Assembly: GCA_030431525.1 (NCBI GenBank)
Contig: JAUIJC010000001.1
Location: forward strand, 5,901 to 69,900
Length of the DNA: 64,000 bases
Source of the DNA: Bacteroidia bacterium
GTDB lineage: Bacteria > Bacteroidota > Bacteroidia > Cytophagales > JAAEPT01
Direction of reading: 5' to 3'
Of the stretch, positions 1 through 45,062 are shown in pieces. The position numbers were made by a program, and so were the translations under genes. The notes beneath the pieces were generated by a model that had not been told where the DNA came from, did not search any database, and worked only from the letters and a program-made list of their open reading frames with translations. Position 1 is the stretch's first letter; the number at the start of each line of letters is the position of its first letter.

Positions 1-84
1 ATGGCCAACGGCCAATTGGTAAATAAGAAGTTCGTCAAGCAATAAGAAGAACTTAGCGTTCAGACATTAGACCTTAGCTCCTGA

Positions 85-903
85 TTGGGGCTAAGGTCTT
101 TTTTATGCCTAATTTTGTGGCAAATGATGCAAAAACACTTCTACCTTATCCATATCCAATACCTCGGATTTCGGTTCCACGGCTACGCCAAACAGCCACA
201 GGTGAAAACCATCCAAGGCATGATCGACAAAACCATTCGGTTTATCCTTGGACCAGAGGTACCCTTCAAAACATTGGGTAGCGGGCGGACGGACGCCTTG
301 GTTTCTGCCAATCACATGGCCTTTGAATTATTCCTTCAACACCCCATTGACCAAGAGGAATTCTTGGAATTACTTAACCATAACTTCCCTGCCGATATCC
401 GAGCCTTGGAAATCGATGAGGTGGACGCTGAGTTTAACATCATTCAGAATCCAAAGACCAAGGAATACGTTTACCTCTTCGCCCACGGACAACAACATCA
501 CCCCTACAGCGCACCATTTATCCATACCTCCAAACAGCATTTGGATGTAGAACTGATGAAAGAAGGGGCACTACTTTTTGAGGGAAAACACCATTTCCGG
601 AGTTACTGCAAAAAACCAAGCGAGACAGGAAAATTTGAGCGTGAGGTATTAGTGAGTCGCATCGAGGAAAATACGGTACTAACGGCCAATTTCTTCCCTG
701 AACAGACCTATGCCTACCACATCCATTCCAAGGGGTTTATGCGCAACCAAATCCGCATGATGATGGGACAGCTCCTTCGTCTTGGCCGTGGGGAAACTGA
801 CTTGGAGGAAATAAAAAAATCCCTGAAACCAGACTACGACACACATTTGGATGCTGTCGCGCCAGCTTCAGGGCTGATGCTGAATAAAATTCGGTTTGAT
901 TGA
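85..903 (+). CDS. truA: tRNA pseudouridine(38-40) synthase TruA
   Basis: 272-aa ORF with a GSGRTDALV motif (catalytic Asp region of the TruA family) and overall TruA-like length and organisation. Confidence 0.8.
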   Translation: MGLRSFLCLILWQMMQKHFYLIHIQYLGFRFHGYAKQPQVKTIQGMIDKTIRFILGPEVPFKTLGSGRTDALVSANHMAFELFLQHPIDQEEFLELLNHNFPADIRALEIDEVDAEFNIIQNPKTKEYVYLFAHGQQHHPYSAPFIHTSKQHLDVELMKEGALLFEGKHHFRSYCKKPSETGKFEREVLVSRIEENTVLTANFFPEQTYAYHIHSKGFMRNQIRMMMGQLLRLGRGETDLEEIKKSLKPDYDTHLDAVAPASGLMLNKIRFD

Positions 904-985
904 TTGGGAGGGGGGTATTTGAATACGTCTGGTGTAAAACCCAACGCTACGGACAGCCGTTTTGGGCAGTTCATACCGTCAGATA

Positions 986-1900
986 TTATGCCCGACGAAC
1001 AGCAGCCCTCCTCGAAAACTTCCCATTAATTACAAACACCGCCATTATCCCCAAGAAACCTCCAAGGAGAGTATACCACTCAATGGTTTCATCAAGGAAG
1101 AACCAAGAGGAAAGCATCGCTCCGGCAGGAACCAAGAAGATATAAGTGCTCGCCTTCTCTGCTCCGATTTGCGTGGTCGCAAACAGGTAGGTGCACGTGG
1201 CAAAGGTGGAGTTGATAATGCCGAAATAAAGGATGTTCATCCAAAAGAGGCGGTCTCCGTTTTGGAGGATGCTCCCCACCTCTTGGAAATCCACCATAAA
1301 GGACATTCCTACGGACACCAACACATGTAACCAGAAGCTGAACGTCAGCGGGTGCCCGAAGTCCGTAGACTTTGAGCTGATCTTGCTCATGACCGCCCAA
1401 AGAAAAGCGGCCACCACGAAATAGAGGTTTCCTGTGGAAAAGATGACCTCAAAACTGTCCCACACTTTTAGCAAGGCACTACCCGCCACGACTCCGAGGG
1501 CAAGTCCGATATATTCAATTTTTTGTGGCGCCTTTCGGCTGATGAGCAAGCCCACCAAAAAGGCCAAAATGGGATTGAGCGTAGTCACCAAAACCCCTCC
1601 CGCTCCAGCAAATCCATGCTGAAGTCCTGTAAAGAACATCAAGCTGTAAAAGCCCAAAAAGAAACCCGCTCCCAACACATAGGGAATCCCCTTTCGGCTC
1701 ACATTCAAATCGATCTTCATTAGCTTGAGCGTAGGAAATAAGGCAAAAACCACCAGCCAAAAGCGGATGTAGGCGATGCTCAAAGCACTGCCATATTGAG
1801 AAAGCACCTTGGCCGACGACCAGCTTATCCCCCAAATCACCATGCTGACCAACATCAGGGTCACCAAGAGTTGTTCCTTACCTATGTTAAGTTTCTTCAT
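986..1900 (-). CDS. DMT/EamA-family membrane transporter
   Basis: 304-aa polytopic hydrophobic ORF with ~10 predicted TM helices and the two-repeat EamA-like architecture. Confidence 0.65.
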   Translation of the reverse strand: MKKLNIGKEQLLVTLMLVSMVIWGISWSSAKVLSQYGSALSIAYIRFWLVVFALFPTLKLMKIDLNVSRKGIPYVLGAGFFLGFYSLMFFTGLQHGFAGAGGVLVTTLNPILAFLVGLLISRKAPQKIEYIGLALGVVAGSALLKVWDSFEVIFSTGNLYFVVAAFLWAVMSKISSKSTDFGHPLTFSFWLHVLVSVGMSFMVDFQEVGSILQNGDRLFWMNILYFGIINSTFATCTYLFATTQIGAEKASTYIFLVPAGAMLSSWFFLDETIEWYTLLGGFLGIMAVFVINGKFSRRAAVRRA

Positions 1901-2040
1901 TTAAATGCTCGAACTTCATCGGGAGCAAAACCTCACCGTGATTCAGTTCGTTCGCCCAAGCACAAAAATACCCCCCGACAACTCATAAATAGCTATCGGG
2001 GGCTTCTTCATTTAATAATCAGTTTGTCTTACTTCTAAAA

Positions 2041-5000
2041 TCACCACTCCACCTTCTCCCACTCTGGGTTAAAGCCAGTTCCCGAATCAGCCACCGACTT
2101 CAACTCATTGTAAATCTCAGAATACAGGCGGGCTGGAATCTGCTCCAAGGCAAAAGTGTTTCCATCCTTGGGCTTGTCATACATATAGGAACCACGGGCT
2201 ACCAAACCCTTTTGGTGGAAGACCACATCATACAATGGCACGGAATCGTGCATGCTGTATCCCACACAATCGCCCAAGAAATTCAAATCAACGGAGATGC
2301 CGTGTCCTTCGATGTCCTTGTAGAAATCATAGAAGCAACCTGCATCCTGAACGCTTCCGCGGTTCCAACCCAACTTGAACAGTTTTGACTGCAAGGAAAG
2401 CGGGTTGATCATAAAGCCTTGGAAATCCAATAGCTTCTTCTCCCCTTTCTGCTCGTCCTTGATGCGATAAACAGGGCGGTGCAACTGCGGGAACGGCTGT
2501 TGAATATCATAATCTTCCAACTGTTCCTTCCAAGCCTCCAGCTCTTCCTCGGCCAATTCAATCGGGTGAACCATGCCTATGCGACAATCAGCAGGCAATT
2601 CAAACTCCTCGTCCTCCACATTGTTGAACGATCCGTCGTCCATATAGCGGAAAGCACCCACCAACTGGCCGTCCTCATAAATTCCCCAAACCAAACCTGT
2701 GGCAAAGGCCTGCATCAACGGGTTCTCTGCAAACAACTTCAGCCAGCTTTCTTTGGCCCACAAACGATTCTTCGCTAAGCCCTGCTCCAATCGCTCGCCT
2801 TGGGCCTTGACCTGCTCGCGGACATCCTTTTTCAATTGCTTGAAGAAATTGCTGGCAGAAGTTGCCTTCTCCTCATCATCTCCCTTTCCTGGCTTCGGCA
2901 GGCTCTTGAAGGTTTTCCCATTATCGTCCGCAATAGCCAAACTCAAATCGCCCCCCAAAGAAATGGTGAACTGACGCGGACCATAATCCAACACCAAGGT
3001 TCCATCTTGGGAGAAACCAAAGTCAGGAACAATGCGGTCCATCAACTCATCAGCTGTGATGCCCAATTCATTGGCGGCAACCTCCAAAGCATTGATCGCA
3101 GCATTCTTCACCTGTTTATGGCGTTCCTTTCGTCGCAAAAAATCCACGGCCTGCAAGGCTCTTGACGTCCCCATCAAAGCCATCGCATGAACATAGTTAG
3201 CAGCCATGGCGCCACGCCCCATGCCAGCCAATTCCTTGGCCGTAGTACGGAGTTTATCCACCAAGGCATCCCCTCCGAAGGCAGCCAAGAAGCCCAAGAC
3301 CCATTTGGTTTTTGACTCTCCATCCCAATGACCAAAGACGTCATTCGCCAAAGGTTTCAGACTATCCTCATGGATGAAATGGGCCAACTCAAGGGCTTCC
3401 TTATCCAAAGTCACCTGCTTGTTACGAGAGAACAGCTTAATCAATGCCTCCGAAACAGAAACAGGCACCTCACTTTTGTCATCCTTCCATTTCAAGCTTG
3501 GCAAGGCCTTATCCTTGAGCCAAGAAATCTTTTGGATGTCTGTGCCAGAGCGTTGTTTCAAAACTTTATCCACACGGGCCAAAACGGCCGAATTGGAATC
3601 AAGTGCAGAAACATCTTCATCACCCGAACCGGCAGTGGTGACAGAAAGGTTTTTTGATTGGAAATATTCGTTGATGGCAGAAACCACAGCCTTGCCTTTC
3701 TCTTGGTCAAGCTGAGCCTTCAACACCTCCACCACTTCTGGCTTATCAAAACGCATCAATAGGCGGACGCCTGATTCACGTGCCCCCTGCTTTTTGGCTT
3801 TCAGCAATTCCTTGGCATCCTCAAAACTGCTCTCCTCATCAGCCAAGCAATCGACTACTGCCCCACGAACTTTCTGGGAACCGTCACTGGCCATTTCCAG
3901 CAGGAATGACTTGTACTTATCACGGTCGATTTCCCAAAGCCAATGAACGCCGTTGAACTTGCCATCAACCGTTGAATTTCGAATGGCATTCAAACCCGCC
4001 TCATCATCATTCTCCAAAACAGTTTCAAACAAAGGTCGCTCTGGGTACTCATGGTGATCCATATAGCGCTCTACATCCAAATAGAGATTGGCCACCAATT
4101 CCTTATTGATGCCATAATCCTCCACTTTGGAAATCAGCTCCTCCGACTTGTTGTTGTGTACATTGAAGAGCTTTTCGAGGACATTCTTTCCAATAAAACT
4201 ACCCAACCAGTACAAGCGTCTTTTTTGTTCTTCGGGAAGGCTTTGTTCAATATTATCCAACATGAAGGAAGCAAAAGCAAGACGTTCCTTCATTTTGCGA
4301 CCGACAGCCAACAGGTCTTTCTCCAAGTCCTTGTCCTTCTCGCCCGTCAAAAAATAGTCTGCCCAGCGGTCGGCAATCACCTTTGCTTTGGGCAACATTT
4401 TAGAGATGTCATTGCCATAGGCCCTCAACCGTTCGCTGATGATTTTAGTGACAAAAGATTCATCGCGGATTTGAGCCAACACCCCATTAAGATTGTCATA
4501 CCCTTGATAGTAATATCGAGTACTCCCCCCATCATAAGGTGTCTGTAAAATCATTTGTTTGATGCGCGCCTCATTCCCCTCATAATCCAGCAGAAGTACC
4601 ATGCTCTCAAAATATTCTCGAACTGACCCTGATGAATTTGCCGACTCTTTTTGTAACGATGGAATGTCGAAAACCGTCAACTTTGGGGAAATGATTCTTG
4701 CCATCTCTGGTCTCAGGGCATCATCAGTATACTCAAAAAGGTGGTTAACAATCTCCATGGTTGGCACCCCTGCCTTCTGCAACAGCTCAAAACGATGCAA
4801 GACCTGTTCTTCAGAGCTAGCATGATGGACAAACACTCCCCAACTTGATTGGGAAACCACCAACGCATGGTGATAGATGCGCAACAGAATAGGATCCTCC
4901 TCGCTAACAAACTTATCCGTCAGCTTTTCGACCAGACGATCCCAATGCCAAAAATCCTTAGGAGTGGCAGGCTTTCGCCCCATAAGCTCATCAACATAGA

Positions 5001-5586
5001 CGGTCTGCTCAGGCTCCTCAATCCGATAGTCACTCAGGGCTTCCCTGATGACCTTTTCCTTATAATCATCAGTGTCATAATTTTTCGCAATCACCTCCTG
5101 AATCTTGGACTTGTAGTTTTTAAACAAGGTTTGTGATGCCTTGTAGTCCTTATCCTTGATATAGGCCTGTGCCATCACATCATAAGCCTCGTCATATTTC
5201 CCCAATGAATTAGCCACATGTGCCAAGGTGTCGAGGTTATGAGAAGTCTTTTGCAATTCCACAGACTTCTTGCTGTAGATATATGCATCCTCAAGTTGAA
5301 TAGCATTGAACTTCACCCAAGCATAGAGGTTGAAAAAATCACTGGCAATCCACCCTGAATCATGGGCAAGGGTATTCATCTCCTTTAAAAATGGTTTTGT
5401 AGCCTCCAAATACGCCTCCATTTCCCCCAAGTTATATAGGGCCGATGAGCGAAGATTGATAGCTCTGGCTCGACTATAACTATCAGTATTTTCCCCGTCT
5501 AAAAATGGTGTCAAGAGGTCAACAACTTCTTGATACTTCTGCTCTCCGTATGCTTTGTGTGCTTTTCTTAAAAGTGACCTACTCAT
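2041..5586 (-). CDS. large TPR + DUF4132 (MolR/YehI-like) protein
   Basis: 1181-aa ORF with N-terminal TPR-like helical repeats, a long alpha-helical middle and a conserved C-terminal domain (WGIYEDGQLVGAFRYMDDG...EFELP...). Last gene of the yeh-like array. Domain assignment is from memory, not from a search. Confidence 0.55.
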   Translation of the reverse strand: MSRSLLRKAHKAYGEQKYQEVVDLLTPFLDGENTDSYSRARAINLRSSALYNLGEMEAYLEATKPFLKEMNTLAHDSGWIASDFFNLYAWVKFNAIQLEDAYIYSKKSVELQKTSHNLDTLAHVANSLGKYDEAYDVMAQAYIKDKDYKASQTLFKNYKSKIQEVIAKNYDTDDYKEKVIREALSDYRIEEPEQTVYVDELMGRKPATPKDFWHWDRLVEKLTDKFVSEEDPILLRIYHHALVVSQSSWGVFVHHASSEEQVLHRFELLQKAGVPTMEIVNHLFEYTDDALRPEMARIISPKLTVFDIPSLQKESANSSGSVREYFESMVLLLDYEGNEARIKQMILQTPYDGGSTRYYYQGYDNLNGVLAQIRDESFVTKIISERLRAYGNDISKMLPKAKVIADRWADYFLTGEKDKDLEKDLLAVGRKMKERLAFASFMLDNIEQSLPEEQKRRLYWLGSFIGKNVLEKLFNVHNNKSEELISKVEDYGINKELVANLYLDVERYMDHHEYPERPLFETVLENDDEAGLNAIRNSTVDGKFNGVHWLWEIDRDKYKSFLLEMASDGSQKVRGAVVDCLADEESSFEDAKELLKAKKQGARESGVRLLMRFDKPEVVEVLKAQLDQEKGKAVVSAINEYFQSKNLSVTTAGSGDEDVSALDSNSAVLARVDKVLKQRSGTDIQKISWLKDKALPSLKWKDDKSEVPVSVSEALIKLFSRNKQVTLDKEALELAHFIHEDSLKPLANDVFGHWDGESKTKWVLGFLAAFGGDALVDKLRTTAKELAGMGRGAMAANYVHAMALMGTSRALQAVDFLRRKERHKQVKNAAINALEVAANELGITADELMDRIVPDFGFSQDGTLVLDYGPRQFTISLGGDLSLAIADDNGKTFKSLPKPGKGDDEEKATSASNFFKQLKKDVREQVKAQGERLEQGLAKNRLWAKESWLKLFAENPLMQAFATGLVWGIYEDGQLVGAFRYMDDGSFNNVEDEEFELPADCRIGMVHPIELAEEELEAWKEQLEDYDIQQPFPQLHRPVYRIKDEQKGEKKLLDFQGFMINPLSLQSKLFKLGWNRGSVQDAGCFYDFYKDIEGHGISVDLNFLGDCVGYSMHDSVPLYDVVFHQKGLVARGSYMYDKPKDGNTFALEQIPARLYSEIYNELKSVADSGTGFNPEWEKVEW

Positions 5587-5658
5587 GATTAAATATTTTT
5601 TTGTTCAAAACTCTGGGGCCTCTCCGCACTCAAAGTGCGAACCCAAAAAATGCTCTTT

Positions 5659-6240
5659 TTAGAACTGATAAAAGACTGTCTTCCCTCCCACCAAAATCTT
5701 GTTGTCATTCTTTAAACGCTCAATGCAGTTCTCGGCTTTTGCCTCATCGTAATCGAAGAAACGAGTGAGGGCATTTTGCAGGCCCAAAATTGTTTGCGGA
5801 CGACTCAGCATAGGTTGATCCTGCAACCAAGCCACCGCCTTTTCCATCCGATTGTTCGCCAATTCAGCTTGTGTTGGCTGATAATGCCATGAGCTGAACT
5901 TCCGCTCTTTCTGGGTCAAGGTCTGTAACAAACCCTTGAAAAATGGGTTTTTGGAAATGAGAACTACCTCAACGGCTGGATTCAATCGGGTGTCAATCCG
6001 ACCCAATGCAAAGGCGATATGCAGGGCCAAATTGTTCTCCTGAGTGCCATCCACTTTTATCCATTCCAACTGCTCGCCCAAGGGTTGCAACTCCTGAATC
6101 AAATCCAGTGAAACATGGTCCTGTTCCTCGGGAATAATGGCGATAACACGCTCTGCTTCTTCACGAAAATTGAACGGTACTTGGGACAACTCCTCGAATG
6201 GAAGTTGCTCGAAATCAATCAAAAAAACCTTCTTGTTCAT
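5659..6240 (-). CDS. hypothetical protein (yeh-like array member)
   Basis: ORF runs to 6360 but would overlap the upstream 94-aa ORF. An internal ATG (MNKKVFLIDF) at 6240 gives a 193-aa product. Co-directional with neighbours. Confidence 0.45.
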   Translation of the reverse strand: MNKKVFLIDFEQLPFEELSQVPFNFREEAERVIAIIPEEQDHVSLDLIQELQPLGEQLEWIKVDGTQENNLALHIAFALGRIDTRLNPAVEVVLISKNPFFKGLLQTLTQKERKFSSWHYQPTQAELANNRMEKAVAWLQDQPMLSRPQTILGLQNALTRFFDYDEAKAENCIERLKNDNKILVGGKTVFYQF

Positions 6241-6284
6241 TGTCTTAGAAAATATGAATTGGAATGAATTCCACTGGAGCTCTA

Positions 6285-6569
6285 TCAAGTCGCCTTGCGG
6301 ATTCCTTCCAAATAATAGCTCAACTGAAAATAGGCGTCGGCATAAACTTCCTTGGAACATGCAATGTCCCGACGAATCTTTTGCGCCTCCTCAGCCAATA
6401 TAGCCAACAATTCTGCGCCTTTGGTCAATCCAACCTGCTTACATTCCTTTTCAGACAGGTTTATCCGTTGTACCAAATCGGGCGTCAGGCTGGCGCTTCC
6501 TCCTAAAAGCATGTCTTCCAAGAGTCGGGAGGTTTTATCGATGATGATGGCGAGTTGTGGGTGTAGCAT
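6285..6569 (-). CDS. hypothetical small protein (94 aa)
   Basis: Intact ORF in operon orientation, located between the SWIM gene and the 193-aa gene. No recognisable motif. Confidence 0.3.
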   Translation of the reverse strand: MLHPQLAIIIDKTSRLLEDMLLGGSASLTPDLVQRINLSEKECKQVGLTKGAELLAILAEEAQKIRRDIACSKEVYADAYFQLSYYLEGIRKAT

Positions 6570-6630
6570 GGGGTTGAATTATCAAATAGGGTTTGAATGG
6601 TGGGTTAACACATCATGGATGAACGAATAG

Positions 6631-6730
6631 ATAGGATTTCATCCTATCCTGACATATTTCGCCCTTACAGGGCTGTGACGTGGTAGCCCTGTAAGGGCGA
6701 AATCCGTTAGCGTAGGGTAAAACCCTACGT
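6631..6730. repeat. composite intergenic palindromic element, copy A
   Basis: Small hairpin ATAGGAtttcaTCCTAT at 6631-6647, a 19-bp-stem hairpin ATTTCGCCCTTACAGGGCT/AGCCCTGTAAGGGCGAAAT at 6656-6703 with loop gtgacgtggt, and a third hairpin CGTAGGGtaaaaCCCTACG at 6711-6729. Confidence 0.8.
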
Positions 6731-6794
6731 ACGACGAACGCCATACATCCAAAACCATACACACAAACCACATCATCATATTCACACATCATTT

Positions 6795-8519
6795 TCATTC
6801 CACCCGCTCCCGAATCGTCCAATTCCGCACCAATCCACTCCCATACAAACCCGTAAAAGGAAAGAAAACCGCCTCGGTGCCATCATGGAAAACCCGCCCC
6901 ATAATCGCCTCAGGAAAGGCCTTGTTCTTATTCATTTTCTCCAAGGCATCAATCAGGCGTTTGGTCGCCTCTGAATAGCGAATCTTAATATCGATGTAAT
7001 CGTCCCGCTCATCAAAAATGGGCTGGGTAAAGACCTGCTCCACCGCATCGAAATTGGGCGTTCCCCAACCTTTTGGACGAAGAATCACTGGCATCGACTC
7101 TTCTGGTGTCAGACTGGGCAATAGACTGGACTGAACCGCCTTCCGCAAGGCACTCCAGTTGGTAAAACCAAACTCATGGGAAAGCCCTGAAACATCCGTA
7201 CTCTGGTAAATCAAAGCCTCGGTTTCCTGACTGGATGAAAGCCTTCGCTCACGGCTGACCTTTGGTGATTTCAGGTCGATGACCGAATGGGTGAGCATCC
7301 GCGCCTCCACATTCAATCCCCAAGGAGCAATCTGGTGAAAAGGCCTAAAGTTGAGTTTTTCGGCATACATGGTCGGCGAGGCTTGGGTGTAACTGAACCA
7401 CTTTTTGGTCCGTTGGTCCACGAAGTAATAGGTGATGCCCTGATAACCTGAGTTCGCCAACCAAGCCTCGGCACCCAAACCAGCCAACCTCAGGCTGGCC
7501 AAAGGCACGTAAGGGCTTTTATGCTCGCCCACCAATTGCGGGAGGTCGCCCTTGCCATGAACAAGCGCTTTTGCAGTCAAATAAAGCCGTTGCAACTGGC
7601 CTTGTATCCCTTGGGGCGTTACCGTCACCTTTTGCTTGAGGTAATCACCCAAGCTGGTTTCCACCCCACGGAGCTTTTTCTCAAGATTTGGCAAATCTGC
7701 ACTATGACAGGCCACGGCCAACTGCCCAGCACGGGGCGGAAGGCTCTCCGGCAAACGTGCCAAACCCATGCCCAGAATCTCGGTACAAAACGCCATAACA
7801 TCAGCCAACAATGGAAATGGAAGATCATAATCGCTTCCCTCAATCAACTCATCAGGATTCATCTCCCCTTGGTCGATGAGATAATGCGCCAAGGCCTCCA
7901 AACGGTGGTAACAAGTACCCTTGGCCTTGCAGGAACAAAGCGAGTTTTTCCATGGCTCCTGCGCAGGAAAAGCGCAGGTGATATTCTCGGCGGGAAAGCT
8001 GATTTGAAGCATGGCCTGCGGAACAATCTCGGCCCGTACACCAAAGGCATAGCGCATGGACAACAGCTTCAAGTCCTTGATATTCGCTTCTTCCTTCAAA
8101 CGTTTTTTGCCCAAAGCCAAGACCTCTGAAAAATCGACTTGAACAAGCTCTTCACCATTCGTTTCTTCCGCATTTCCTTCTTCCAGCCAATGCTCCTTTA
8201 AGTAGAGCAAGGCCATCATCCGATGCTTGCAAAATGTGCGTGACGGACAGGTACAGATGGACGCCTCAATGTCATCCGTGAACACACATTCCGTGGCATC
8301 GTCCCACTTCACGGCCACCTTTCCATCTCCCTCCGAGATTTCAGGAGCATCCATTTTTGCCAGCTCCTTTTGGGCACGCTTGTAAATGCCTTTGTTCGCT
8401 AACAGGATAAAGGCGTTTTCGTCAAGGGTTTGGAGGAAGGATTGGAAGGACATGGGAATTGACGTTACGGCTGTCACCTGCCAACAGCTGTAAGCTTTGG
8501 CGGGTGATAAAATCAACAA
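6795..8519 (-). CDS. SWIM zinc-finger protein (YehQ-like)
   Basis: Two CxCxnCxH SWIM signatures (CTCPSRTFCKH and CSCKAKGTCYH) in a 574-aa ORF. Confidence 0.7.
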   Translation of the reverse strand: MLILSPAKAYSCWQVTAVTSIPMSFQSFLQTLDENAFILLANKGIYKRAQKELAKMDAPEISEGDGKVAVKWDDATECVFTDDIEASICTCPSRTFCKHRMMALLYLKEHWLEEGNAEETNGEELVQVDFSEVLALGKKRLKEEANIKDLKLLSMRYAFGVRAEIVPQAMLQISFPAENITCAFPAQEPWKNSLCSCKAKGTCYHRLEALAHYLIDQGEMNPDELIEGSDYDLPFPLLADVMAFCTEILGMGLARLPESLPPRAGQLAVACHSADLPNLEKKLRGVETSLGDYLKQKVTVTPQGIQGQLQRLYLTAKALVHGKGDLPQLVGEHKSPYVPLASLRLAGLGAEAWLANSGYQGITYYFVDQRTKKWFSYTQASPTMYAEKLNFRPFHQIAPWGLNVEARMLTHSVIDLKSPKVSRERRLSSSQETEALIYQSTDVSGLSHEFGFTNWSALRKAVQSSLLPSLTPEESMPVILRPKGWGTPNFDAVEQVFTQPIFDERDDYIDIKIRYSEATKRLIDALEKMNKNKAFPEAIMGRVFHDGTEAVFFPFTGLYGSGLVRNWTIRERVE

Positions 8520-8528
8520 CTAATTCGG

Positions 8529-8795
8529 TTAGGAATTCTTTGGTGGCTTAAACTTCGGGGAATTCTCACTTCGTTTAGAACGCCTCTCAGTCATCAGATA
8601 AAGGCTTTCCACCTTCTCCCTCGCCCATGGCGTCGCCCGCAAAAACTTGAGGCTGGACTTGACGGATGGATTGCTCTGAAAACAGCGGATGGGAATTAGC
8701 TCGCCCAGTTCCTCCCAACCATAATGGGCAACGAGGTATTCGACAATATCGGCGAGCTTTACACCGTGGAGGGGGTTGTTGGGTTGGTCACTCAT
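8529..8795 (-). CDS. DUF2132/VF530-like small protein
   Basis: 88-aa ORF. N-terminal NNPLHGVKL...YGWEELG...IRCF...[19 protein letters not shown] is recalled as characteristic of the VF530 family. Not verified by search. Confidence 0.45.
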
Positions 8796-8805
8796 GGTTC
8801 TGGCG

Positions 8806-8899
8806 CAGGGGACAAGCCCCTACGTTACGGAATTCAGTTAATAATGGAAGAGTTACTGGTAGTCGCAACTCCGTAACGTAGGGCCTTGTGCCCTACGTC
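8806..8899. repeat. nested hairpin element (CCCTACGTTACGG ... CCGTAACGTAGGG)
   Basis: 13-bp perfect inverted repeat at 8818-8830 and 8871-8883 with a ~40-nt loop. Also AGGGGacaagCCCCT at 8806-8820 and ACGTAGGGCcttgtGCCCTACGT at 8877-8899. Confidence 0.7.
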
Positions 8900-8912
8900 T
8901 TAAAAGGACGCA

Positions 8913-10097
8913 TCAACTCCCCACAATCTCCCCAACCCATTCCGCCAAATGCTCCGGCGTCATGGCGCCAACCTCCGCACCAAGTTCGCGCATTTTTTCC
9001 GCCGCTTGTCGGTCATAGAATGGCTCAGCATCGGCATCCAAGGACGTCAGGAGTAGCAATTTAGCACCCGACTCAATGATGGACGAAGCACGGGCATACA
9101 TCTGGGCGTAGCCTCCTCCCTCATACAAGTCCGTCACCATCACCACGATGGAGCGCTGTGGCGTTTCCAACAAGGATTCGCAATAAGCCAAGGCCTTCTG
9201 GATGTTGGTTCCTCCGCCCAATTGGAAACTCATCAGAGTTTGGACGGGATCATCCAGATGGTCAGAAAGGTCCACCACATTGGTGTCAAACACATTAAGC
9301 TTTAGGCGAAGCTGGGGCAATGAGGCAAAGATACCAGCCATGATAGCACTGTGGATGGCAGAATCCAGCATACTTCCACTTTGGTCCACAGAAATGATGA
9401 AATCCCATGGTGTAAAGCGTTTCACCCGACCGTGGAAATACATGCGCTCCACCACCAGTCGGTTATTTTTAGCGTCCCAGTTCTTTAGGTTTTGACGCAC
9501 GGTGCGCTTAAAATCCAAGTTCCGAATGGATTTGACAGTGCTTGCCTTATTGCGGTCAATCTTCCCGAAAAAACTTAAACGGACTTGACTTTCCAATTTC
9601 TCACGCAGTTCACCCACCACCTTGGCCACAATGGTTCGTGCGGTTTCCAGCACCTCGCCCTTCATCAGGTGTTTCATTTGGAGGACAGTTTTCAACAAGT
9701 CCATATTCGGACTCATCTTTTCCAACACCTCCTTGTCAGTGAGCAGGTCGCGCATCTGGTACTTGTCCAAGGCATGGCGCTCCAAGATTTCCACCGTAGA
9801 TTTTGGGAACAGCTTGCGGACCTTGGTGATCCACTTGGGCACACTCAACTGACTGCCTCCCGTGCCTCCAGCCTTGTCCTGCTCGCCTTTCTTCTCACGC
9901 TCCTGATCCACACGAATGCCTCGCTCCTTGCCGTATTCCCGCCCATAGAGGTATTCCAACAATTCCTCCATTTGCTGATACTTGGAAGGCATGCCTTGAC
10001 CTTCGCCCTCTCCTTCGCCTTCAGCTTGCTGGAAATCCAAGGACTGCTCGGCGGACTTGCCGAGGACTAATCGCCAACGGTTTAGGGTGATGCTCAT
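8913..10097 (-). CDS. von Willebrand factor A domain protein (YehP-like)
   Basis: 394-aa ORF with MIDAS DxSxS motif (DQSGSM) and a vWA-like beta-alpha pattern (VFDTNVVDL...GGGTNIQKAL). Confidence 0.75.
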   Translation of the reverse strand: MSITLNRWRLVLGKSAEQSLDFQQAEGEGEGEGQGMPSKYQQMEELLEYLYGREYGKERGIRVDQEREKKGEQDKAGGTGGSQLSVPKWITKVRKLFPKSTVEILERHALDKYQMRDLLTDKEVLEKMSPNMDLLKTVLQMKHLMKGEVLETARTIVAKVVGELREKLESQVRLSFFGKIDRNKASTVKSIRNLDFKRTVRQNLKNWDAKNNRLVVERMYFHGRVKRFTPWDFIISVDQSGSMLDSAIHSAIMAGIFASLPQLRLKLNVFDTNVVDLSDHLDDPVQTLMSFQLGGGTNIQKALAYCESLLETPQRSIVVMVTDLYEGGGYAQMYARASSIIESGAKLLLLTSLDADAEPFYDRQAAEKMRELGAEVGAMTPEHLAEWVGEIVGS

Positions 10098-10125
10098 TGT
10101 GTTTTATTAATTCTTTGAATCGTGG

Positions 10126-10222
10126 ATTGTACCATGGTTTGTACCATGGATTTCATCCATGGCTAACATATTTCGCCCTTACAGGGCTATGACCTGAAAG
10201 CCCTGTAAGGGCGAAATATGTC
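10126..10222. repeat. composite intergenic palindromic element, copy B
   Basis: Tandem gtaccatgg x2, hairpin CCATGGAtttcaTCCATGG at 10143-10161, and the same large hairpin at 10167-10221 (ACATATTTCGCCCTTACAGGGCT...AGCCCTGTAAGGGCGAAATATGT) with loop atgacctgaa. Confidence 0.8.
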
Positions 10223-10260
10223 AACGATGGTCATTAGCCCGTCGAACTCAACCAAGACTG

Positions 10261-10821
10261 CTAAACCATACCTGAAAAATGCTTAAACCCCAGTCCAAAC
10301 TTCACATGTAATTCTTCAATAAATGAGGGCTTTATCGAAGGCCAATTCCAAAAGGTGATGACAAAATTGGTTAGACAAAACCCTTTATTAACAGAGAAAG
10401 AATCCATAGGACTCTCATGTTTACAAGAAGCACAAGTCATCGCTATATTTTCCCCTTCATTCCAACTTCCAACCCTTTCAAAAAAATCGCCAAGGTCCAA
10501 GCCATGTTCAAGTTGATTTGCCTCACAAACAGGACATAGAATCTCTTCTAATTCCATATTACCTCCCGCCGTAGCCACTTGTCGTTCATCTGAAAACTCA
10601 ACTCCACACACGCCACTTGTTGGAATAGACTCCTCATCCTCCACAAGCAATTTGGCAAACTCTCCTGCTCTAAATCCCTCTTTCTCTGATGCCAACAAAC
10701 AATTGCTTGGGATTGAGTCTAAAATCCCCTTCTCATGGAAATAGGAAATCACTTCCTTCTTGGAAATTTCTTGAGGGGGAAAAACAGCGATTAGTTGATA
10801 ATGCGTACTCATCTTTCTCAA
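10261..10821 (-). CDS. hypothetical Cys-rich protein (186 aa)
   Basis: Contains CPVCEAN...CASCKH, a possible zinc-ribbon. 4-bp overlap with the upstream gene suggests translational coupling. No known family recognised. Confidence 0.45.
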   Translation of the reverse strand: MRKMSTHYQLIAVFPPQEISKKEVISYFHEKGILDSIPSNCLLASEKEGFRAGEFAKLLVEDEESIPTSGVCGVEFSDERQVATAGGNMELEEILCPVCEANQLEHGLDLGDFFERVGSWNEGENIAMTCASCKHESPMDSFSVNKGFCLTNFVITFWNWPSIKPSFIEELHVKFGLGFKHFSGMV

Positions 10822-11837
10822 ATGTTCATTAACAAACCTTCCCCTACTGTATTCAACCGCTCCGCCTCCTTCAACACCGCCTCATCCAAGGCCTCCATAT
10901 CCAATACCTCCTTTTCCGTTGTCTGATAAAGCTCGGCCACTTGTCCCCCAATCTTGTTGATGTCTGAGGGATTGAAGAAACTGAAAGCCAGTCGAAGCTC
11001 CGGCAGAATGGCTAAGAATTCCTCCTCGCCGACATTCTGTAAAATATGGTCAAGCCCTTGAAGGAGCTCGCCTCCACTCAGCAAGGTCTCCCGTGCCGTG
11101 GCAAACAAACCTTTGAGGAAGGAAACCGCATTCGCGAAATGGTGTCCTGTTCCATAGAAGAACCCTTCGGCCCTTTTCACCACATCCGCCCGTTCCATTT
11201 CCCCAAGACCCAAGAGCAGTCCCGCCGAGGCACCCTGCAAGGCCACATTCCCGTTTTCAAGGTTTAGTAGACTCTCCAAACCTCCTTGCAACAGCTGTTG
11301 GTCCAACAATCGAGGATGCTCCAACAACAACTGGTAAATGCCCCTAAGGGACGAAATCCGTTTATCTTCCTCTTCTACCCGTGTACCGCCAAGAGTCGCC
11401 ACCAACAAGGCCGTGCGACTCCATCCCTGCTTGAGCACCTCCTCCAATTCCTCATTCAGTTTAAAGTCCAACAGTCGATGAGCATGGAACAGGTAATTGA
11501 GATGGAAACAGGCATCAGAAAGAGAATCAAACTCATGGTCGGACTGCAACTTTTCCTTGAGCTGTGGCAAGAAAAACGGAATCTCATTACCGAGGCCCAT
11601 GCGAAAGGCTTCAACCAAAAGCTTGGCTACTTCCCTTGAATTCACTGCATTTTTCAAGGACTGAAGCAACAACTCACGTCCCGCCTCTTTCAGGCTTCCG
11701 CCAAAAATGGACAGCTCCACCAACATGCCTTCAACGGATGGCGACATGCGGTATTCCCAAATCTCACGAATCAGGTTAGTGTCTTTTTGCTTCGCAAAGT
11801 CAGGTCCTTTCTTCAACTCGCAGAAGGCCGTTCCCAA
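10818..11837 (-). CDS. YehM/DUF5682-like protein, C-terminal portion
   Basis: 339-aa helical ORF immediately after the 442-aa ORF. Combined length (~781 aa) matches single-chain YehM-type proteins (~760 aa). Confidence 0.45.
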   Translation of the reverse strand: MGTAFCELKKGPDFAKQKDTNLIREIWEYRMSPSVEGMLVELSIFGGSLKEAGRELLLQSLKNAVNSREVAKLLVEAFRMGLGNEIPFFLPQLKEKLQSDHEFDSLSDACFHLNYLFHAHRLLDFKLNEELEEVLKQGWSRTALLVATLGGTRVEEEDKRISSLRGIYQLLLEHPRLLDQQLLQGGLESLLNLENGNVALQGASAGLLLGLGEMERADVVKRAEGFFYGTGHHFANAVSFLKGLFATARETLLSGGELLQGLDHILQNVGEEEFLAILPELRLAFSFFNPSDINKIGGQVAELYQTTEKEVLDMEALDEAVLKEAERLNTVGEGLLMNI

Positions 11838-11865
11838 ATAATTGAGGATATGAAAAAAGTGGCTT

Positions 11866-13194
11866 TTACGTAGGTGTAGGCTTTTGATAGATGCTCAACG
11901 CCTCTTCTTGGGAATTGTTGGTCGCCACCTTGAGCTTCAACTTTTGGCATTGCTCGCGGAAATCCTCCAAAATGGGTGGCACAGGCGCCTCGTCGCAAAG
12001 ATTGCCGAAACGCTCGCCTTGCAACAGCTTGCCCATTTCCTGCAAGGGCGTGGCATTCATATCCGAAAGCTCGCCTTTGATAAAACAGGAATGCACCCCG
12101 TCCAACAACTCATACACGCCGGCATCCCGTTTTTTGCGCAAGTCACGTAGGCCCAAGGCCAAGTTCAAGGCCTCAATCTCATCGGCGGTGGAAAGAGGCT
12201 CCTCCAACTTGCGAACTGCCCTTCCCGTCCTGACCACATAATCCCGAACCGTCAAGCGATAGGCGTCATCAATGCCCGAGGATTGGATGTTGTCCCAAAC
12301 CTTCTGGTAAAATGCGGGATGAGGCATGCCACTGGCATAGCCCATCACTTGGTCGGCCTCACGGAAGGAATAGGCCATCGGAAAGGTGCCGACCTCTTCG
12401 GGCTTAATCTTTCGAACCTTTTGTTTCTTGGGCTTCTTGGCATTCAACAGCTCCACCAATCCCAAGGTGTGAAAACCACCCGTAACGACTAAAACACGGT
12501 CGTATTTCTCTTGCGCCTCCCGAATCTTTTCGGCCATGAAACGTTCGCGCGCCAAACAGCCTTCTGCCTCCAAGCTTTCCTCGGATTGCTCGATACGGGC
12601 ATAATAGCAATAGCCCAACATGCTGTGGACAAAATCCGCAGTGGACTTGCCCAAGCCGTTCACCTCGTAGTGCTTTTCCCACAATTCATTGAAATCGCGG
12701 ACACCCTCTTTCTCACACAAGGTTTGGATGTAATGGCTTTGAAAAAGGCGATGCTCATCACCGTAAGCCTGCTTGCGCCCTTCCTTCCGCAAGCCTTTCT
12801 GCTCTTGGCTCGCCAACAAAATATTGGGGTAGTTCAAATCAATGAACTCGGTTTTGACACCATGCTCCAAGCCCTTCTTGAGAATCACCAACTCTGGGGA
12901 ATAATCGAGAAAAGGATAGTAACAGCGATAGCGTTTGTCTTTCTCGCCCAGCATTCCGCCCTTGTCATGAAAACTGTAATAAATGGCGATGGGCGTTTCC
13001 GTGTCAGAATGTACCAACAAGGGGTTGAGGTGGTTGGTGTCCTCAGGTCCCTCGATAAGGATGCAATCGGGCTGGTATTCCTCAAACACCCTCTCCAAAT
13101 GCCATGAACAGGCTGGGCTGTGGTGGCGGACTGGAAAAAAAACGGTGTTGGTGGTGAGGTTGAAGGATTGGGAGAAGAGGTCTTGGAGGGTCAT
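11866..13194 (-). CDS. YehM/DUF5682-like protein, N-terminal portion
   Basis: 442-aa ORF starting ...FFPVRHHSPACSWHL..., a motif I associate with the DUF5682 N-terminus. Sits between the AAA and vWA genes as in yehLMP. Confidence 0.45.
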   Translation of the reverse strand: MTLQDLFSQSFNLTTNTVFFPVRHHSPACSWHLERVFEEYQPDCILIEGPEDTNHLNPLLVHSDTETPIAIYYSFHDKGGMLGEKDKRYRCYYPFLDYSPELVILKKGLEHGVKTEFIDLNYPNILLASQEQKGLRKEGRKQAYGDEHRLFQSHYIQTLCEKEGVRDFNELWEKHYEVNGLGKSTADFVHSMLGYCYYARIEQSEESLEAEGCLARERFMAEKIREAQEKYDRVLVVTGGFHTLGLVELLNAKKPKKQKVRKIKPEEVGTFPMAYSFREADQVMGYASGMPHPAFYQKVWDNIQSSGIDDAYRLTVRDYVVRTGRAVRKLEEPLSTADEIEALNLALGLRDLRKKRDAGVYELLDGVHSCFIKGELSDMNATPLQEMGKLLQGERFGNLCDEAPVPPILEDFREQCQKLKLKVATNNSQEEALSIYQKPTPT

Positions 13195-13212
13195 GGGGGA
13201 TTACATTTCTTG

Positions 13213-13313
13213 GACGATGGGCTTTACGCCCATCGCTATCATATTTCGCCCTTACAGGGCTGTGACGTGGTAGCCCTGTAAGGGCGAAATATGTTAGCAT
13301 AGGACAACCTCCT
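13213..13313. repeat. composite intergenic palindromic element, copy C
   Basis: Hairpin CGATGGGCtttaCGCCCATCG at 13215-13234, a large hairpin at 13240-13293 identical to copy A including the loop, and hairpin CATAGGAcaaccTCCTATG at 13299-13317. Confidence 0.8.
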
Positions 13314-13375
13314 ATGTCTTCGTTAATTGCGACGATTGTGAAAAATGCGACGAACAAAATGTTACAATTATCCCC

Positions 13376-14554
13376 TCATTTCAACCTCCCCGAAGCCTCA
13401 TAATACTTCTTCCACAACCCCTCCTCACTAATCGCCCGTTGCTTGATGACCACATCGAAATAAGCCTTCAAACGGCCCAAGTCATCCTCGTTTTCCTTCA
13501 ACACCGCCCCGACCAAGTTTTCTACAATGCGCTCTGGAGCGATAGCCTCCTCTCCATAATAATGCGCCGAAAGCGCTGACTGATAATAAACAGAGACAGC
13601 CTCTGCGGTACTCATCACCGTGAAAGGCGATTCCACACGATGCCCTTCCTTGGTCACACCCTCCCGCAACTCTTGGAAGGTGGTCGCCAACAAGCCCACC
13701 AAATCGGTATCGATTTGAGGTTCAATGCCATTGGAACGAAGCAATTCCATACTCTCCTGCTCAATGATTTTTGCCTCCAAATTCACATTGGAAATCGGCC
13801 TCACCGTCTCAAAATTGAAACGGCGCTTCAGCGCGGCACTCATTTCGTTCACCCCCTTGTCGCGCGTGTTTGCCGTGGCAATCAGGTTAAAACCCGCCTT
13901 GGCATACAGATGACCTTCCTGTCCCAATTCAGGAATGGTCATCACCTTATCGGAAAGCACACTCACCAAAGCATCCTGCGTTTCGGCCGGACAACGCGTG
14001 ATTTCCTCGAAACGGGTAATCAGTCCGTCCCTCATCCCCACATATAATGGTGATGGCACCAAGGCCTCAGGCACTGGACCCTTAGCCAAAAGCAGGGCGT
14101 AGTTCCAAGAATATTTGATCATGTCCTCGGTGACGGCTGCTGTTCCCTGAATAGTGTGCGCCGTGGTGCCACAAATAGCAGCCGAAAGCAACTCGCTCAA
14201 CATGGTCTTGGCTGTGCCCGGCTCCCCGACCAGCATGAGTCCTCTATTGCCCGCCAAAGTGACAATGCAACGCTCTATCAAGGCGTCATTACCGAAAAAC
14301 TTGCGCGAGATGGTAATTTCCTCTCCCTTATGAACAAGTGGCTTCTCCGCTCCTAGAATAAAGGTGCGAACGGCCTGAGGAGAAAGTTTCCAAGTCGCTG
14401 GTTTCGGGGCTTTGTCATGGGTGGCCAAGGCCTCCAACTCTTTCTGATAGCTAACTTCAACGGGTGGCTTGAGGTGCTGGTTTTGGGACATGTTTTGGAA
14501 AAGTTTGAACTTGTGGTGCAATAGTACGCAATCCTCTGCAATCGGGGGAGGCAT
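13376..14554 (-). CDS. MoxR-like AAA+ ATPase (YehL-like)
   Basis: Walker A LVGEPGTAKT, an AAA_5/MoxR-type core, ~390 aa. Alternative start MSQNQHL at 14491. Confidence 0.75.
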   Translation of the reverse strand: MPPPIAEDCVLLHHKFKLFQNMSQNQHLKPPVEVSYQKELEALATHDKAPKPATWKLSPQAVRTFILGAEKPLVHKGEEITISRKFFGNDALIERCIVTLAGNRGLMLVGEPGTAKTMLSELLSAAICGTTAHTIQGTAAVTEDMIKYSWNYALLLAKGPVPEALVPSPLYVGMRDGLITRFEEITRCPAETQDALVSVLSDKVMTIPELGQEGHLYAKAGFNLIATANTRDKGVNEMSAALKRRFNFETVRPISNVNLEAKIIEQESMELLRSNGIEPQIDTDLVGLLATTFQELREGVTKEGHRVESPFTVMSTAEAVSVYYQSALSAHYYGEEAIAPERIVENLVGAVLKENEDDLGRLKAYFDVVIKQRAISEEGLWKKYYEASGRLK

Positions 14555-14557
14555 TGG

Positions 14558-14635
14558 AGACTTTAGACATTAGACTTTGGACTTAAGCTTTTTGATCAGC
14601 ATAAAGCTTAAGTCCAAAGTCTAAAGTCTAACGTC
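14558..14635. promoter_or_regulatory. long near-perfect palindrome in a divergent intergenic region
   Basis: GACTTTGGACTTAAGCTTT (14573-14591) is the exact reverse complement of AAAGCTTAAGTCCAAAGTC (14603-14621). Arms extend to ~27 bp with one mismatch. The loop contains a TGATCA palindrome. It sits between the AAA ATPase start and the oxidase start. Confidence 0.6.
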
Positions 14636-30093: not shown

Positions 30094-30118
30094 AGTATTC
30101 AAGTATTTTTCATCTGAA

Positions 30119-30224
30119 CCCCTCTCTGTCATTCTGACGAAGGAAGAATCTGATAAAAAGAAAAACAATGTTGTCAGCCAGTTCCTTCGCTAACGCTCAG
30201 GATGACAGCCTGTAGTTCAGACCA
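30119..30224. repeat. ~100-bp direct repeat, copy 1 (flanks GIY-YIG gene)
   Basis: cccctctctgtcattctgacgaaggaagaatctg...gttccttcgctaacgctcaggatgacagcctgtagttcagacca. It is internally an imperfect inverted repeat and aligns to copy 2 along its length. Confidence 0.75.
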
Positions 30225-30548: not shown

Positions 30549-30597
30549 TGTTGAAAAAATTTTCGTTTTGAGACTCTTTTAAACTCCACTTAGCAAA

Positions 30598-30691
30598 CTC
30601 CCTCCTGTCCTTCTGACGAAGGAAGAATCTGGCAAAGATTTTCAATCAGTTCCTTCATTACACTCAGGATAACAGCCCAGATTTTAGACCA
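30598..30691. repeat. ~100-bp direct repeat, copy 2 (flanks GIY-YIG gene)
   Basis: ctccctcctgtccttctgacgaaggaagaatctg...gttccttcattacactcaggataacagcccagattttagacca. Same orientation as copy 1, ~80% identity by eye with one ~11-bp indel. Confidence 0.75.
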
Positions 30692-45011: not shown

Positions 45012-45016
45012 TGCCA

Positions 45017-45062
45017 AAAAATAAGGGCCTTTCTCGATTTGAGAAAGGCCCTTATTTTTTGA
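45017..45062. terminator. bidirectional intrinsic terminator between convergent trxA and ftsZ
   Basis: AATAAGGGCCTTTCTCgatttGAGAAAGGCCCTTATT is a perfect 16-bp stem. It is flanked by AAAAAA upstream and TTTTTT downstream. Confidence 0.7.

Follow-up and report, generated by a model that had tools for sequence, protein, structure and literature searches.

The window, by which we mean the whole 64-kb stretch analyzed here (contig JAUIJC010000001.1 of a Bacteroidia bacterium, assembly GCA_030431525.1), carries three composite palindromes of ~100 nt each. They sit between open reading frames (ORFs) of a single operon whose genes all lie on the minus strand, at the SWIM/PIN7 (doublet A), 186-aa ORF/VWA (doublet B) and AAA/DUF5682 (doublet C) junctions, and no other copies were found within the window (Table 1). 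Each palindrome is built on ATTTCGCCCTTACAGGGCT and its reverse complement, which are exact at 6656-6674/6685-6703, 10170-10188/10199-10217 and 13243-13261/13272-13290; six matches were observed against 0.02 expected by chance in the window. Allowing up to 3 mismatches gave no further copy of ATTTCGCCCTTACAGGGCT in the 64 kb, and a looser core pattern returned the same six. These arms form central hairpins with perfect stems of 19 bp in A, ~24 bp in B and 22 bp in C, and all loops are 10 nt long, A and C sharing the sequence GTGACGTGGT and B having ATGACCTGAA. Doublets A and C are identical over a 51-nt core that takes in the loop (repeat family D1). The original prediction, a reading of the same letters by a model, had described a long-stemmed hairpin shared by three sites, with identical loops in A and C and a different one in B, and our analysis agrees with it on these points. 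It had also listed three small flanking hairpins, all of which are present (ATAGGATTTCATCCTAT, CCATGGATTTCATCCATGG and CATAGGACAACCTCCTATG), but it missed two others, CGTAGGGTAAAACCCTACG on the right of doublet A and CGATGGGCTTTACGCCCATCG on the left of doublet C. Thus A and C have an outer hairpin at either end, whereas B has one only on the left, its right side being degenerate. The RNA fold calculation proposed alongside the prediction as a check gave -60 to -67 kcal/mol for 121-nt segments (z score -8.9 to -11.6), in line with a strong secondary structure, and folding of the ~100-nt elements as single-stranded DNA gave -36 to -40 kcal/mol (z score -10.5 to -13.2).

The outer hairpins of doublets A and C correspond to each other in inverted orientation (99 nt, 80% complementary), while the 51-nt core is in direct orientation; this mixture suggests an inversion of the loop or a recombination between the perfect arms. 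By inspection, no obvious direct duplication of a target site, such as accompanies classical MITEs derived from DDE transposases, flanks the three copies, the boundaries of which are not sharp. An independent short-read assembly of the same organism (L124, Logan SRR24442557) is 100% identical to the window over positions 1-6682, and its contig terminates exactly inside the loop of doublet A, showing that the palindromes break assemblies. We rejected the idea that this end is a sign of many genomic copies, because the identical A and C cores, or the palindrome alone, break k-mer assembly.

Each doublet is an inverted pair of ~46-nt units placed 3'-to-3' (convergent) with 10 nt between them. A unit starts with a hairpin of 7-8 bp (hp1), which varies in sequence but keeps its structure, followed by a conserved linker (GCTAAnnTATTTCG) and a highly conserved hairpin, GCCCTTACAGGGC (hp2). 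The dinucleotide CT directly after hp1 and directly after hp2 is invariant in 22/22 aligned units. On the opposite strand, xTAG or xCAG stands directly before hp1 in every unit, mostly as TTAG, ATAG or TCAG; with a slash marking the foot of the hairpin, the tags in the window are GTTAG/C..., GATAG/C... and GTCAG/G..., and a locus from another genome (L015) has the canonical GTAG/CCCACGG. The tag is GTAG-like, not strictly GTAG. This architecture corresponds to the Rfam family RF01687 (Acido-Lenti-1), whose 46-nt model consists of an 8-bp hairpin corresponding to hp1, a 12-nt linker, a 5-bp hp2 and one unpaired base: four of the six units in the window exceed the gathering score of 37 bits, the fifth falls below it and the sixth has no reported score. 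Our own covariance model (R1), which was built from nine 46-nt sequences only (alignment A2), detected exactly these six units in the 64 kb and nothing else. RF01687 is filed in Rfam as 'Gene; sRNA' of unknown function, from Acidobacteria and Lentisphaerae, and the published seed sequences have an additional hp2-like hairpin ~25 nt upstream of each unit.

The original prediction had offered, for the case that the three copies were the only ones, a reading as locus-specific structures, and had suggested a pattern search across genomes. That search, together with the RF01687 match, speaks against such a reading. When one genome per species was scanned, the exact 18-mer TTTCGCCCTTACAGGGCT was found in at least 116 8-kb genome blocks from at least 10 phyla, those among the matches listed being Acidobacteriota, Planctomycetota, Verrucomicrobiota, Bacteroidota, Calditrichota, Nitrospirota, Desulfobacterota, Cloacimonadota, Sumerlaeota and Poribacteria. 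Since the carriers include Mb-scale contigs as well as cultured Flavobacterium and Cyclobacterium strains, mis-binning cannot explain this spread over phyla. One Blastocatellia chromosome has at least 10 separate blocks with the 18-mer, and a metagenome scan for the doublet form seen in the window returned five contigs. Viral contigs gave one match only (L122), so phages are not notable carriers of the family.

In other genomes the units are associated with genes of Y1 transposases. At L003, L029, L041, L051, L055, L087 and L102, the motif starts 5-28 nt past the stop codon of a ~150-aa ORF which matches Pfam Y1_Tnp (E 1e-19 to 1e-24) and whose product ends in ...YDE(K/R)YVWD. These ORFs are bracketed on both sides by inverted hp2-hp1-hp2 modules, and RF01687 matches surround the genes. 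A Y1 gene was found in 13 of the 116 motif-selected blocks, among the matches listed. As these loci had been selected by the motif, we repeated the test from the protein side, choosing six Y1 homologues on long contigs by protein similarity alone and scanning them with R1 with filters off. Inverted flanking units were found at 6/6 of these genes (gene 4001-4453): upstream, all six have a minus-strand unit at ~3900-3957 and a partial hp2 (-) just before the start codon, and downstream, a partial hp2 (+) at 4451-4474 is followed past the stop codon by a plus-strand unit at ~4487-4546. The divergent unit pairs that enclose a Y1 gene are separated by 480-553 nt (6 cases). Divergent pairs without a gene stand closer together, at 88-159 nt (22 cases, of which 19 fall within 88-109 nt), and look like the same structure from which the gene was deleted. 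The type seen in the window is the convergent pair, with 8-17 nt between its units, and three such pairs also lie immediately beside a Y1 gene in L015. Furthermore, a metagenome contig (L119, 6366-8191) carries seven tandem doublets of the window type with a 190-nt period, directly adjoining the 3' end of a minus-strand Y1 gene (7630-8082), on the far side of which stands another unit, and the outer hairpin pair of doublet C (CGATGGG.../CATAGG...) is of the left and right types found in these doublets. The Y1 protein of this contig is 66% identical to the 'RayT' of Aquiflexum balticum. In two different assemblies (L130 and L131), the Y1 gene at 4001-4453 occupies the same slot after paaB, paaA/C, paaD and DUF4159 genes, which hints at vertical inheritance at a fixed locus.

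The Y1 proteins associated with the units are ~150 aa long. In all of them the HuH motif DH[VI]H, WQ and the YIxxQxxHH positions of the Y motif (YIxNQxEHH) are invariant and the C-terminal tail is conserved, features which together are the published signature of TnpA_Y1 'subclass 1.2', a class 1 group (PMC6006769). The family is large, with at least 7994 matches at E<=1e-10, and JGI labels many of the homologues 'REP element-mobilizing transposase RayT'. Quentin et al. (2018) described subclass 1.2 as a low-copy group (mean 1.7) that lacks the properties of insertion sequences (ISs) and is distributed in Cyanobacteria/Bacteroidetes (PMC6006769).

From these observations, we consider it about 80% probable that the three sites are non-autonomous palindromic DNA repeats of the type known as REPIN (a hairpin-forming doublet of repetitive extragenic palindromic, REP, sequences) or BIME (bacterial interspersed mosaic element), which were spread by a Y1 enzyme and inserted into spacers of the operon. 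The original prediction had called them REP/BIME-like mosaics, a description well fitted by inverted doublets of a tagged-hairpin unit that flanks Y1 genes in other genomes. The systems formed by REP/BIME/REPIN sequences and RAYTs (REP-associated tyrosine transposases) in E. coli, Pseudomonas fluorescens and Stenotrophomonas are similar to the present elements in many respects: a tagged hairpin with xTAG before a GC-rich stem of 7-8 bp, inverted doublets with a short spacer, an extragenic location, local clusters or arrays, and, in other genomes, many copies without a gene. The single ~150-aa HUH/Y1 gene placed between inverted units in other genomes resembles a REPtron, and the invariant CT beside the hairpins is likewise a feature of REPs and their TnpA_REP enzymes (PMC8266576). 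On the other hand, the unit described here is bipartite, a variable hp1 being joined to the highly conserved second hairpin, its tag is mostly TTAG, ATAG or TCAG instead of GTAG, and, unlike REPs, which as a rule are lineage-specific, it has a core that is identical across at least 10 phyla. Unlike a RAYT, the partner enzyme belongs to class 1 (the IS200-like subclass 1.2).

The units would probably be recognized as folded single-stranded DNA, by analogy with RAYT enzymes, and the likely enzyme would be a ~150-aa HUH/Y1 transposase with the subclass 1.2 signature, encoded once elsewhere in the genome of this host. Such an enzyme may cut and rejoin the units, allowing them to spread into intergenic DNA, often as local clusters, and in the present case the elements would have landed in three or four spacers of the MoxR-DUF5682-VWA-SWIM-DUF4132 operon. 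In E. coli, Stenotrophomonas and Marinomonas, the RAYT (TnpA_REP) enzymes cut REPs as single strands, at the dinucleotide CT (PMC8266576). The CT that is invariant in the units matches this cleavage site, and we extend the mechanism, by inference, to the family studied here. With less confidence, although we still favor it, we propose that RF01687 is the missing REP-type DNA partner of subclass 1.2, the two forming a bipartite, REPtron-like system with the same 18-nt core across at least 10 phyla. As published, subclass 1.2 differs from what we observed, since the genes found here are flanked by inverted repeat modules and come from many more phyla (PMC6006769). If the proposal is correct, the doublets in the window are ordinary members of that system. 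We found no paper linking Acido-Lenti-1 or its core sequence to Y1 transposases, although our coverage of the literature was incomplete and the link may be published.

Several points weigh against the interpretation of the sites as REPIN-type repeats moved by a Y1 enzyme. No Y1 gene was found in the 64-kb window (best tblastn E 0.26). The Y1 proteins pass the NCBIfam IS200/IS605 model NF033573 (58-64 bits, cut-off 55) but fail the RAYT model NF047646 (REP_Tyr_transpos; 22 bits, cut-off 80), and they are therefore not canonical class-2 RAYTs, so that the organization is REPtron-like but, by these profile scores, the enzyme is of another kind. The survey that defined subclass 1.2 gives 'REP: no' for it (PMC6006769). 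The covariation described below was counted on an alignment fitted to the model, which favors the modelled structure. Finally, the concentration within one operon emphasized by the original prediction is real but modest (three sites in 6.6 kb of the 64 kb, p ~0.03 under uniform placement), and the local arrays found in other genomes offer no more than a loose explanation for it.

A further possibility, which is compatible with an origin as REPIN-type repeats, is that the hairpins have been co-opted as regulators inside the operon, where they would set the stoichiometry of the MoxR, DUF5682, VWA and SWIM products by blocking 3'-5' exonucleases, by offering sites for RNase processing or through Rho-dependent attenuation. 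We regard this as conceivable but doubtful. Within the 64 kb, all three doublets are confined to junctions between cistrons of one operon, and transcripts of either orientation would form hairpins with the RNA fold energies given above, so that side effects on the mRNA are plausible. RNA stabilization and protein binding, two roles named in the original prediction, may likewise be secondary effects. E. coli REPs stabilize upstream mRNA and modulate translation; Liang et al. are said to have dealt with REPs and translation in 2015. The stop-proximal distance reported for translational effects of REPs is ~15 nt, and the central hairpins lie outside this range, their starts being ~43 to 91 nt from the stop codon of the gene upstream. 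The outermost units detected start 16-65 nt past the upstream stop, the lower figure being that of the weak outer unit of doublet B, and end 20-269 nt before the next start. Moreover, the databases hold no close relative of the operon in which conservation could be followed, the best match to the DUF5682 protein outside the host itself showing 49-51% identity. In the closest homologous operon (L123), the AAA, DUF5682, VWA and SWIM-like genes overlap or abut, and an R1 scan with filters off found no repeat units; this operon works without spacers or hairpins, and its compact, repeat-free form implies that the doublets of the window are insertions into the spacers of a normally compact operon.

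Two roles that the original prediction had considered for the repeats found no support. Between 5000 and 15500 there are 12 terminator-like sites, all of them apart from the doublets, and the stems are not followed by a T-run, which argues against an attenuator or terminator of the intrinsic type and counts against co-option as well. The split of the DUF5682 gene (called YehM-like in the prediction), which consists of ORFs of 442 and 339 aa with a +1 frame offset and a 28-nt gap (11838-11865) adjacent to a T6 run, is not explained by the repeats, since no repeat lies at 11838-11865 and the repeat-free L123 homologue is also split, at another place (568 + 246 aa).

It is unlikely that the units are simply miniature derivatives of an ordinary, actively transposing IS of the IS200/IS605 type, as opposed to a domesticated single-copy RAYT-like system. 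The NCBIfam equivalog assignment of the associated proteins, together with the very large size of the protein family across phyla, which suggests horizontal transfer, is consistent with such an origin, and IS200/IS605 elements and their miniature derivatives (palindrome-associated transposable elements, PATEs) likewise combine a Y1 HUH enzyme with subterminal hairpins recognized as single-stranded DNA. The ends of these ISs, however, are non-inverted, with asymmetric left and right hairpins on one strand, and the whole IS is multicopy (PMC6006769 for the end structure), whereas the flanks described here form symmetric inverted repeats, and multiple copies are seen of the gene-less units, which far outnumber the gene-carrying ones. 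The low copy number and the lack of IS properties of subclass 1.2 and the common syntenic slot of the gene in two assemblies also speak against such an origin.

Still less probable, in our view, is that the units act as structured RNAs, namely as genes of the Acido-Lenti-1 small RNA (sRNA) or as cis-acting RNA motifs. Besides the Rfam filing, Weinberg et al. (2010) rated Acido-Lenti-1 a probable RNA on the basis of covariation (PMC2864571), and the elements in the window are inside a transcribed operon and have very stable RNA folds. We also observed strong covariation in both helices. Because the MAFFT alignment of units (A1) mis-registered hp1, the loop lengths of which differ, pairs were counted on a model-based alignment (A3; 150 units, 130 distinct), where 97.9% of cells are paired, and double-sided changes occur at 13/13 pairs (256 cells), while slid controls pair only 35-56%. 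One-sided changes of the G-U type were seen in ~7/1571 cells, indicating that the pairing is nearly all Watson-Crick with virtually no G-U. This pairing, the presence of units on both strands as inverted doublets in the window and in other genomes, the symmetric inverted flanking of a transposase gene and the tandem arrays of 190-nt period, which are typical of repeat DNA, favor a DNA palindrome that is read as folded single strands. In addition, the sites show no conspicuous promoter or terminator signal. The sequence data thus suggest that RF01687 is a family of DNA repeats rather than of RNA genes. Our units share the two-hairpin 46-nt consensus with the published family (PMC2864571); unlike its filing, they occur here in a Cytophagales-like member of the Bacteroidota, on both strands, in inverted doublets and, in other genomes, flanking a transposase gene.

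We dropped the idea that the elements are integron attC-like or tyrosine-recombinase sites that mark cassettes (186-aa ORF, VF530, PIN7) in the operon, because, although the arm ends GCTAAC...GTTAGC resemble R''/R' cores, small accessory genes lie beside the elements, group II introns were observed close to Acido-Lenti-1 (Weinberg et al. 2010, PMC2864571) and multiple matches are reported on Vibrio anguillarum chromosome 1, the stems are perfect (19-24 bp) without the extrahelical bases that define attC, the conserved partner gene elsewhere encodes a Y1/HUH enzyme and no integron integrase, the sequence conservation across phyla is unlike attC, and the elements occur singly or in arrays without cassettes.

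For the window, the interpretation as REPIN-type repeats means that the hairpins are selfish or domesticated repeat DNA between genes, ordinary additional members of an element kind already known, and not a device made for the yeh-like operon. More generally, a curated Rfam family, the members of which are called as 'ncRNA' by pipelines, appears to consist of REP-like DNA elements, which would matter for studies such as a preprint that reads RF01687 matches as possible regulators of protease genes (bioRxiv 10.64898/2026.02.09.704811), and a subclass of Y1 transposases thought to be repeat-free appears to have repeats. Since the core hairpin is conserved almost perfectly from phylum to phylum, it would be a convenient substrate for studying DNA recognition by class-1 Y1 enzymes, and the family could be used as a marker for REP-type elements outside Proteobacteria.

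Table 1. Features of the host operon and of the palindromic elements in the window (positions in the window; R1, our covariance model; fold energies for single-stranded DNA unless stated).
Feature	Position	Strand	Description
Host operon	2041..14554	-	Nine genes, transcribed from AAA_5/MoxR towards DUF4132; Pfam matches
DUF4132	2041-5586	-	Pfam
PIN7	5659-6360	-	Pfam
REPIN-like doublet A	6630..6729		Left unit 6630-6674 (+), 10-nt loop, right unit 6685-6729 (-); central hairpin 6656-6703; SWIM gene stop (6795)/PIN7 gene junction; RF01687 right 39.3, left 32.3 bits; R1 42.6 and 41.3 bits; fold -36 kcal/mol, z -11.3
SWIM	6795-8519	-	Pfam
VF530	8529-8795	-	Pfam
Possible degenerate relative	8804..8897		VWA/VF530 junction; inverted repeat I7; RNA fold z -6.6
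VWA_CoxE	8913-10097	-	Pfam
Additional half-copy at doublet B	10131-10142		TACCATGGTTTG
REPIN-like doublet B	10144..10244		Left unit 10144-10188 (+), right unit 10199-10244 (-) with degenerate outer hairpin; central hairpin 10170-10217; 186-aa ORF stop (10261)/VWA gene start (10097) junction; RF01687 left unit 41.7 bits; R1 38.5 and 25.5 bits; fold -37 kcal/mol, z -10.5
186-aa ORF	10261-10821	-	No Pfam family
DUF5682 C-half	10818-11837	-	Pfam, profile positions 408-700
DUF5682 N-half	11866-13194	-	Pfam, profile positions 2-371
REPIN-like doublet C	13215..13316		Units 13215-13261 (+) and 13272-13316 (-); central hairpin 13243-13290; MoxR AAA+ gene stop (13376)/DUF5682 N-half start (13194) junction; RF01687 40.3 and 38.1 bits; R1 41.8 and 43.6 bits; fold -40.2 kcal/mol, z -12.3
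AAA_5/MoxR	13376-14554	-	Pfam

A fourth palindrome in the operon, at 8804-8897, may be a degenerate relative of the doublets. Two outer hairpins of the GTAG type, CGCAGGGGACAAGCCCCTACG and CGTAGGGCCTTGTGCCCTACG, are present in it together with GTTACGGAATT arms in inverted orientation, but the GCCCTTACAGGGC core is absent, and neither RF01687 nor R1 detected it; the relationship would be seen in the GTAGGG...CCCTAC pattern that it has in common with the right hairpin of doublet A.

None of the nine operon proteins, including PIN7, VF530 and the product of the 186-aa ORF, matched a PADLOC defence-system model, and with zero matches we rejected the operon as an annotated defence system. Its GC content of 0.47-0.51 is slightly above that of the rest of the window (0.43-0.50, mostly 0.44-0.46), which is ordinary chromosome with ftsZ, murE, a PBP gene, lptG and a mscK-like gene. 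The MurE protein encoded in the window is 60-64% identical to those of Runella, Spirosoma, Dyadobacter and Cyclobacteriaceae, and judged by such protein comparisons the host is a Cytophagales-like member of the Bacteroidota without a close sequenced relative.

Three other repeats were noticed in the window. An inverted repeat at 14559-14635, the 36-nt arms of which are 92% complementary, takes up the intergenic region from which the MoxR AAA+ gene (start 14554) and a 510-aa ORF (14650) diverge, and might serve the operon as an operator or promoter element. A 41-nt direct repeat (…CTGTCATTCTGACGAAGGAAGAATCTG…) is present at 30117-30157 and 30596-30636, 479 bp apart and 83% identical, upstream of a 1864-aa ORF, and carries a small inverted repeat of its own. 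At 45015-45061, between convergent genes beside ftsZ, a perfect hairpin with 21-bp arms (CAAAAAATAAGGGCCTTTCTC / GAGAAAGGCCCTTATTTTTTG) looks like an ordinary bidirectional terminator.

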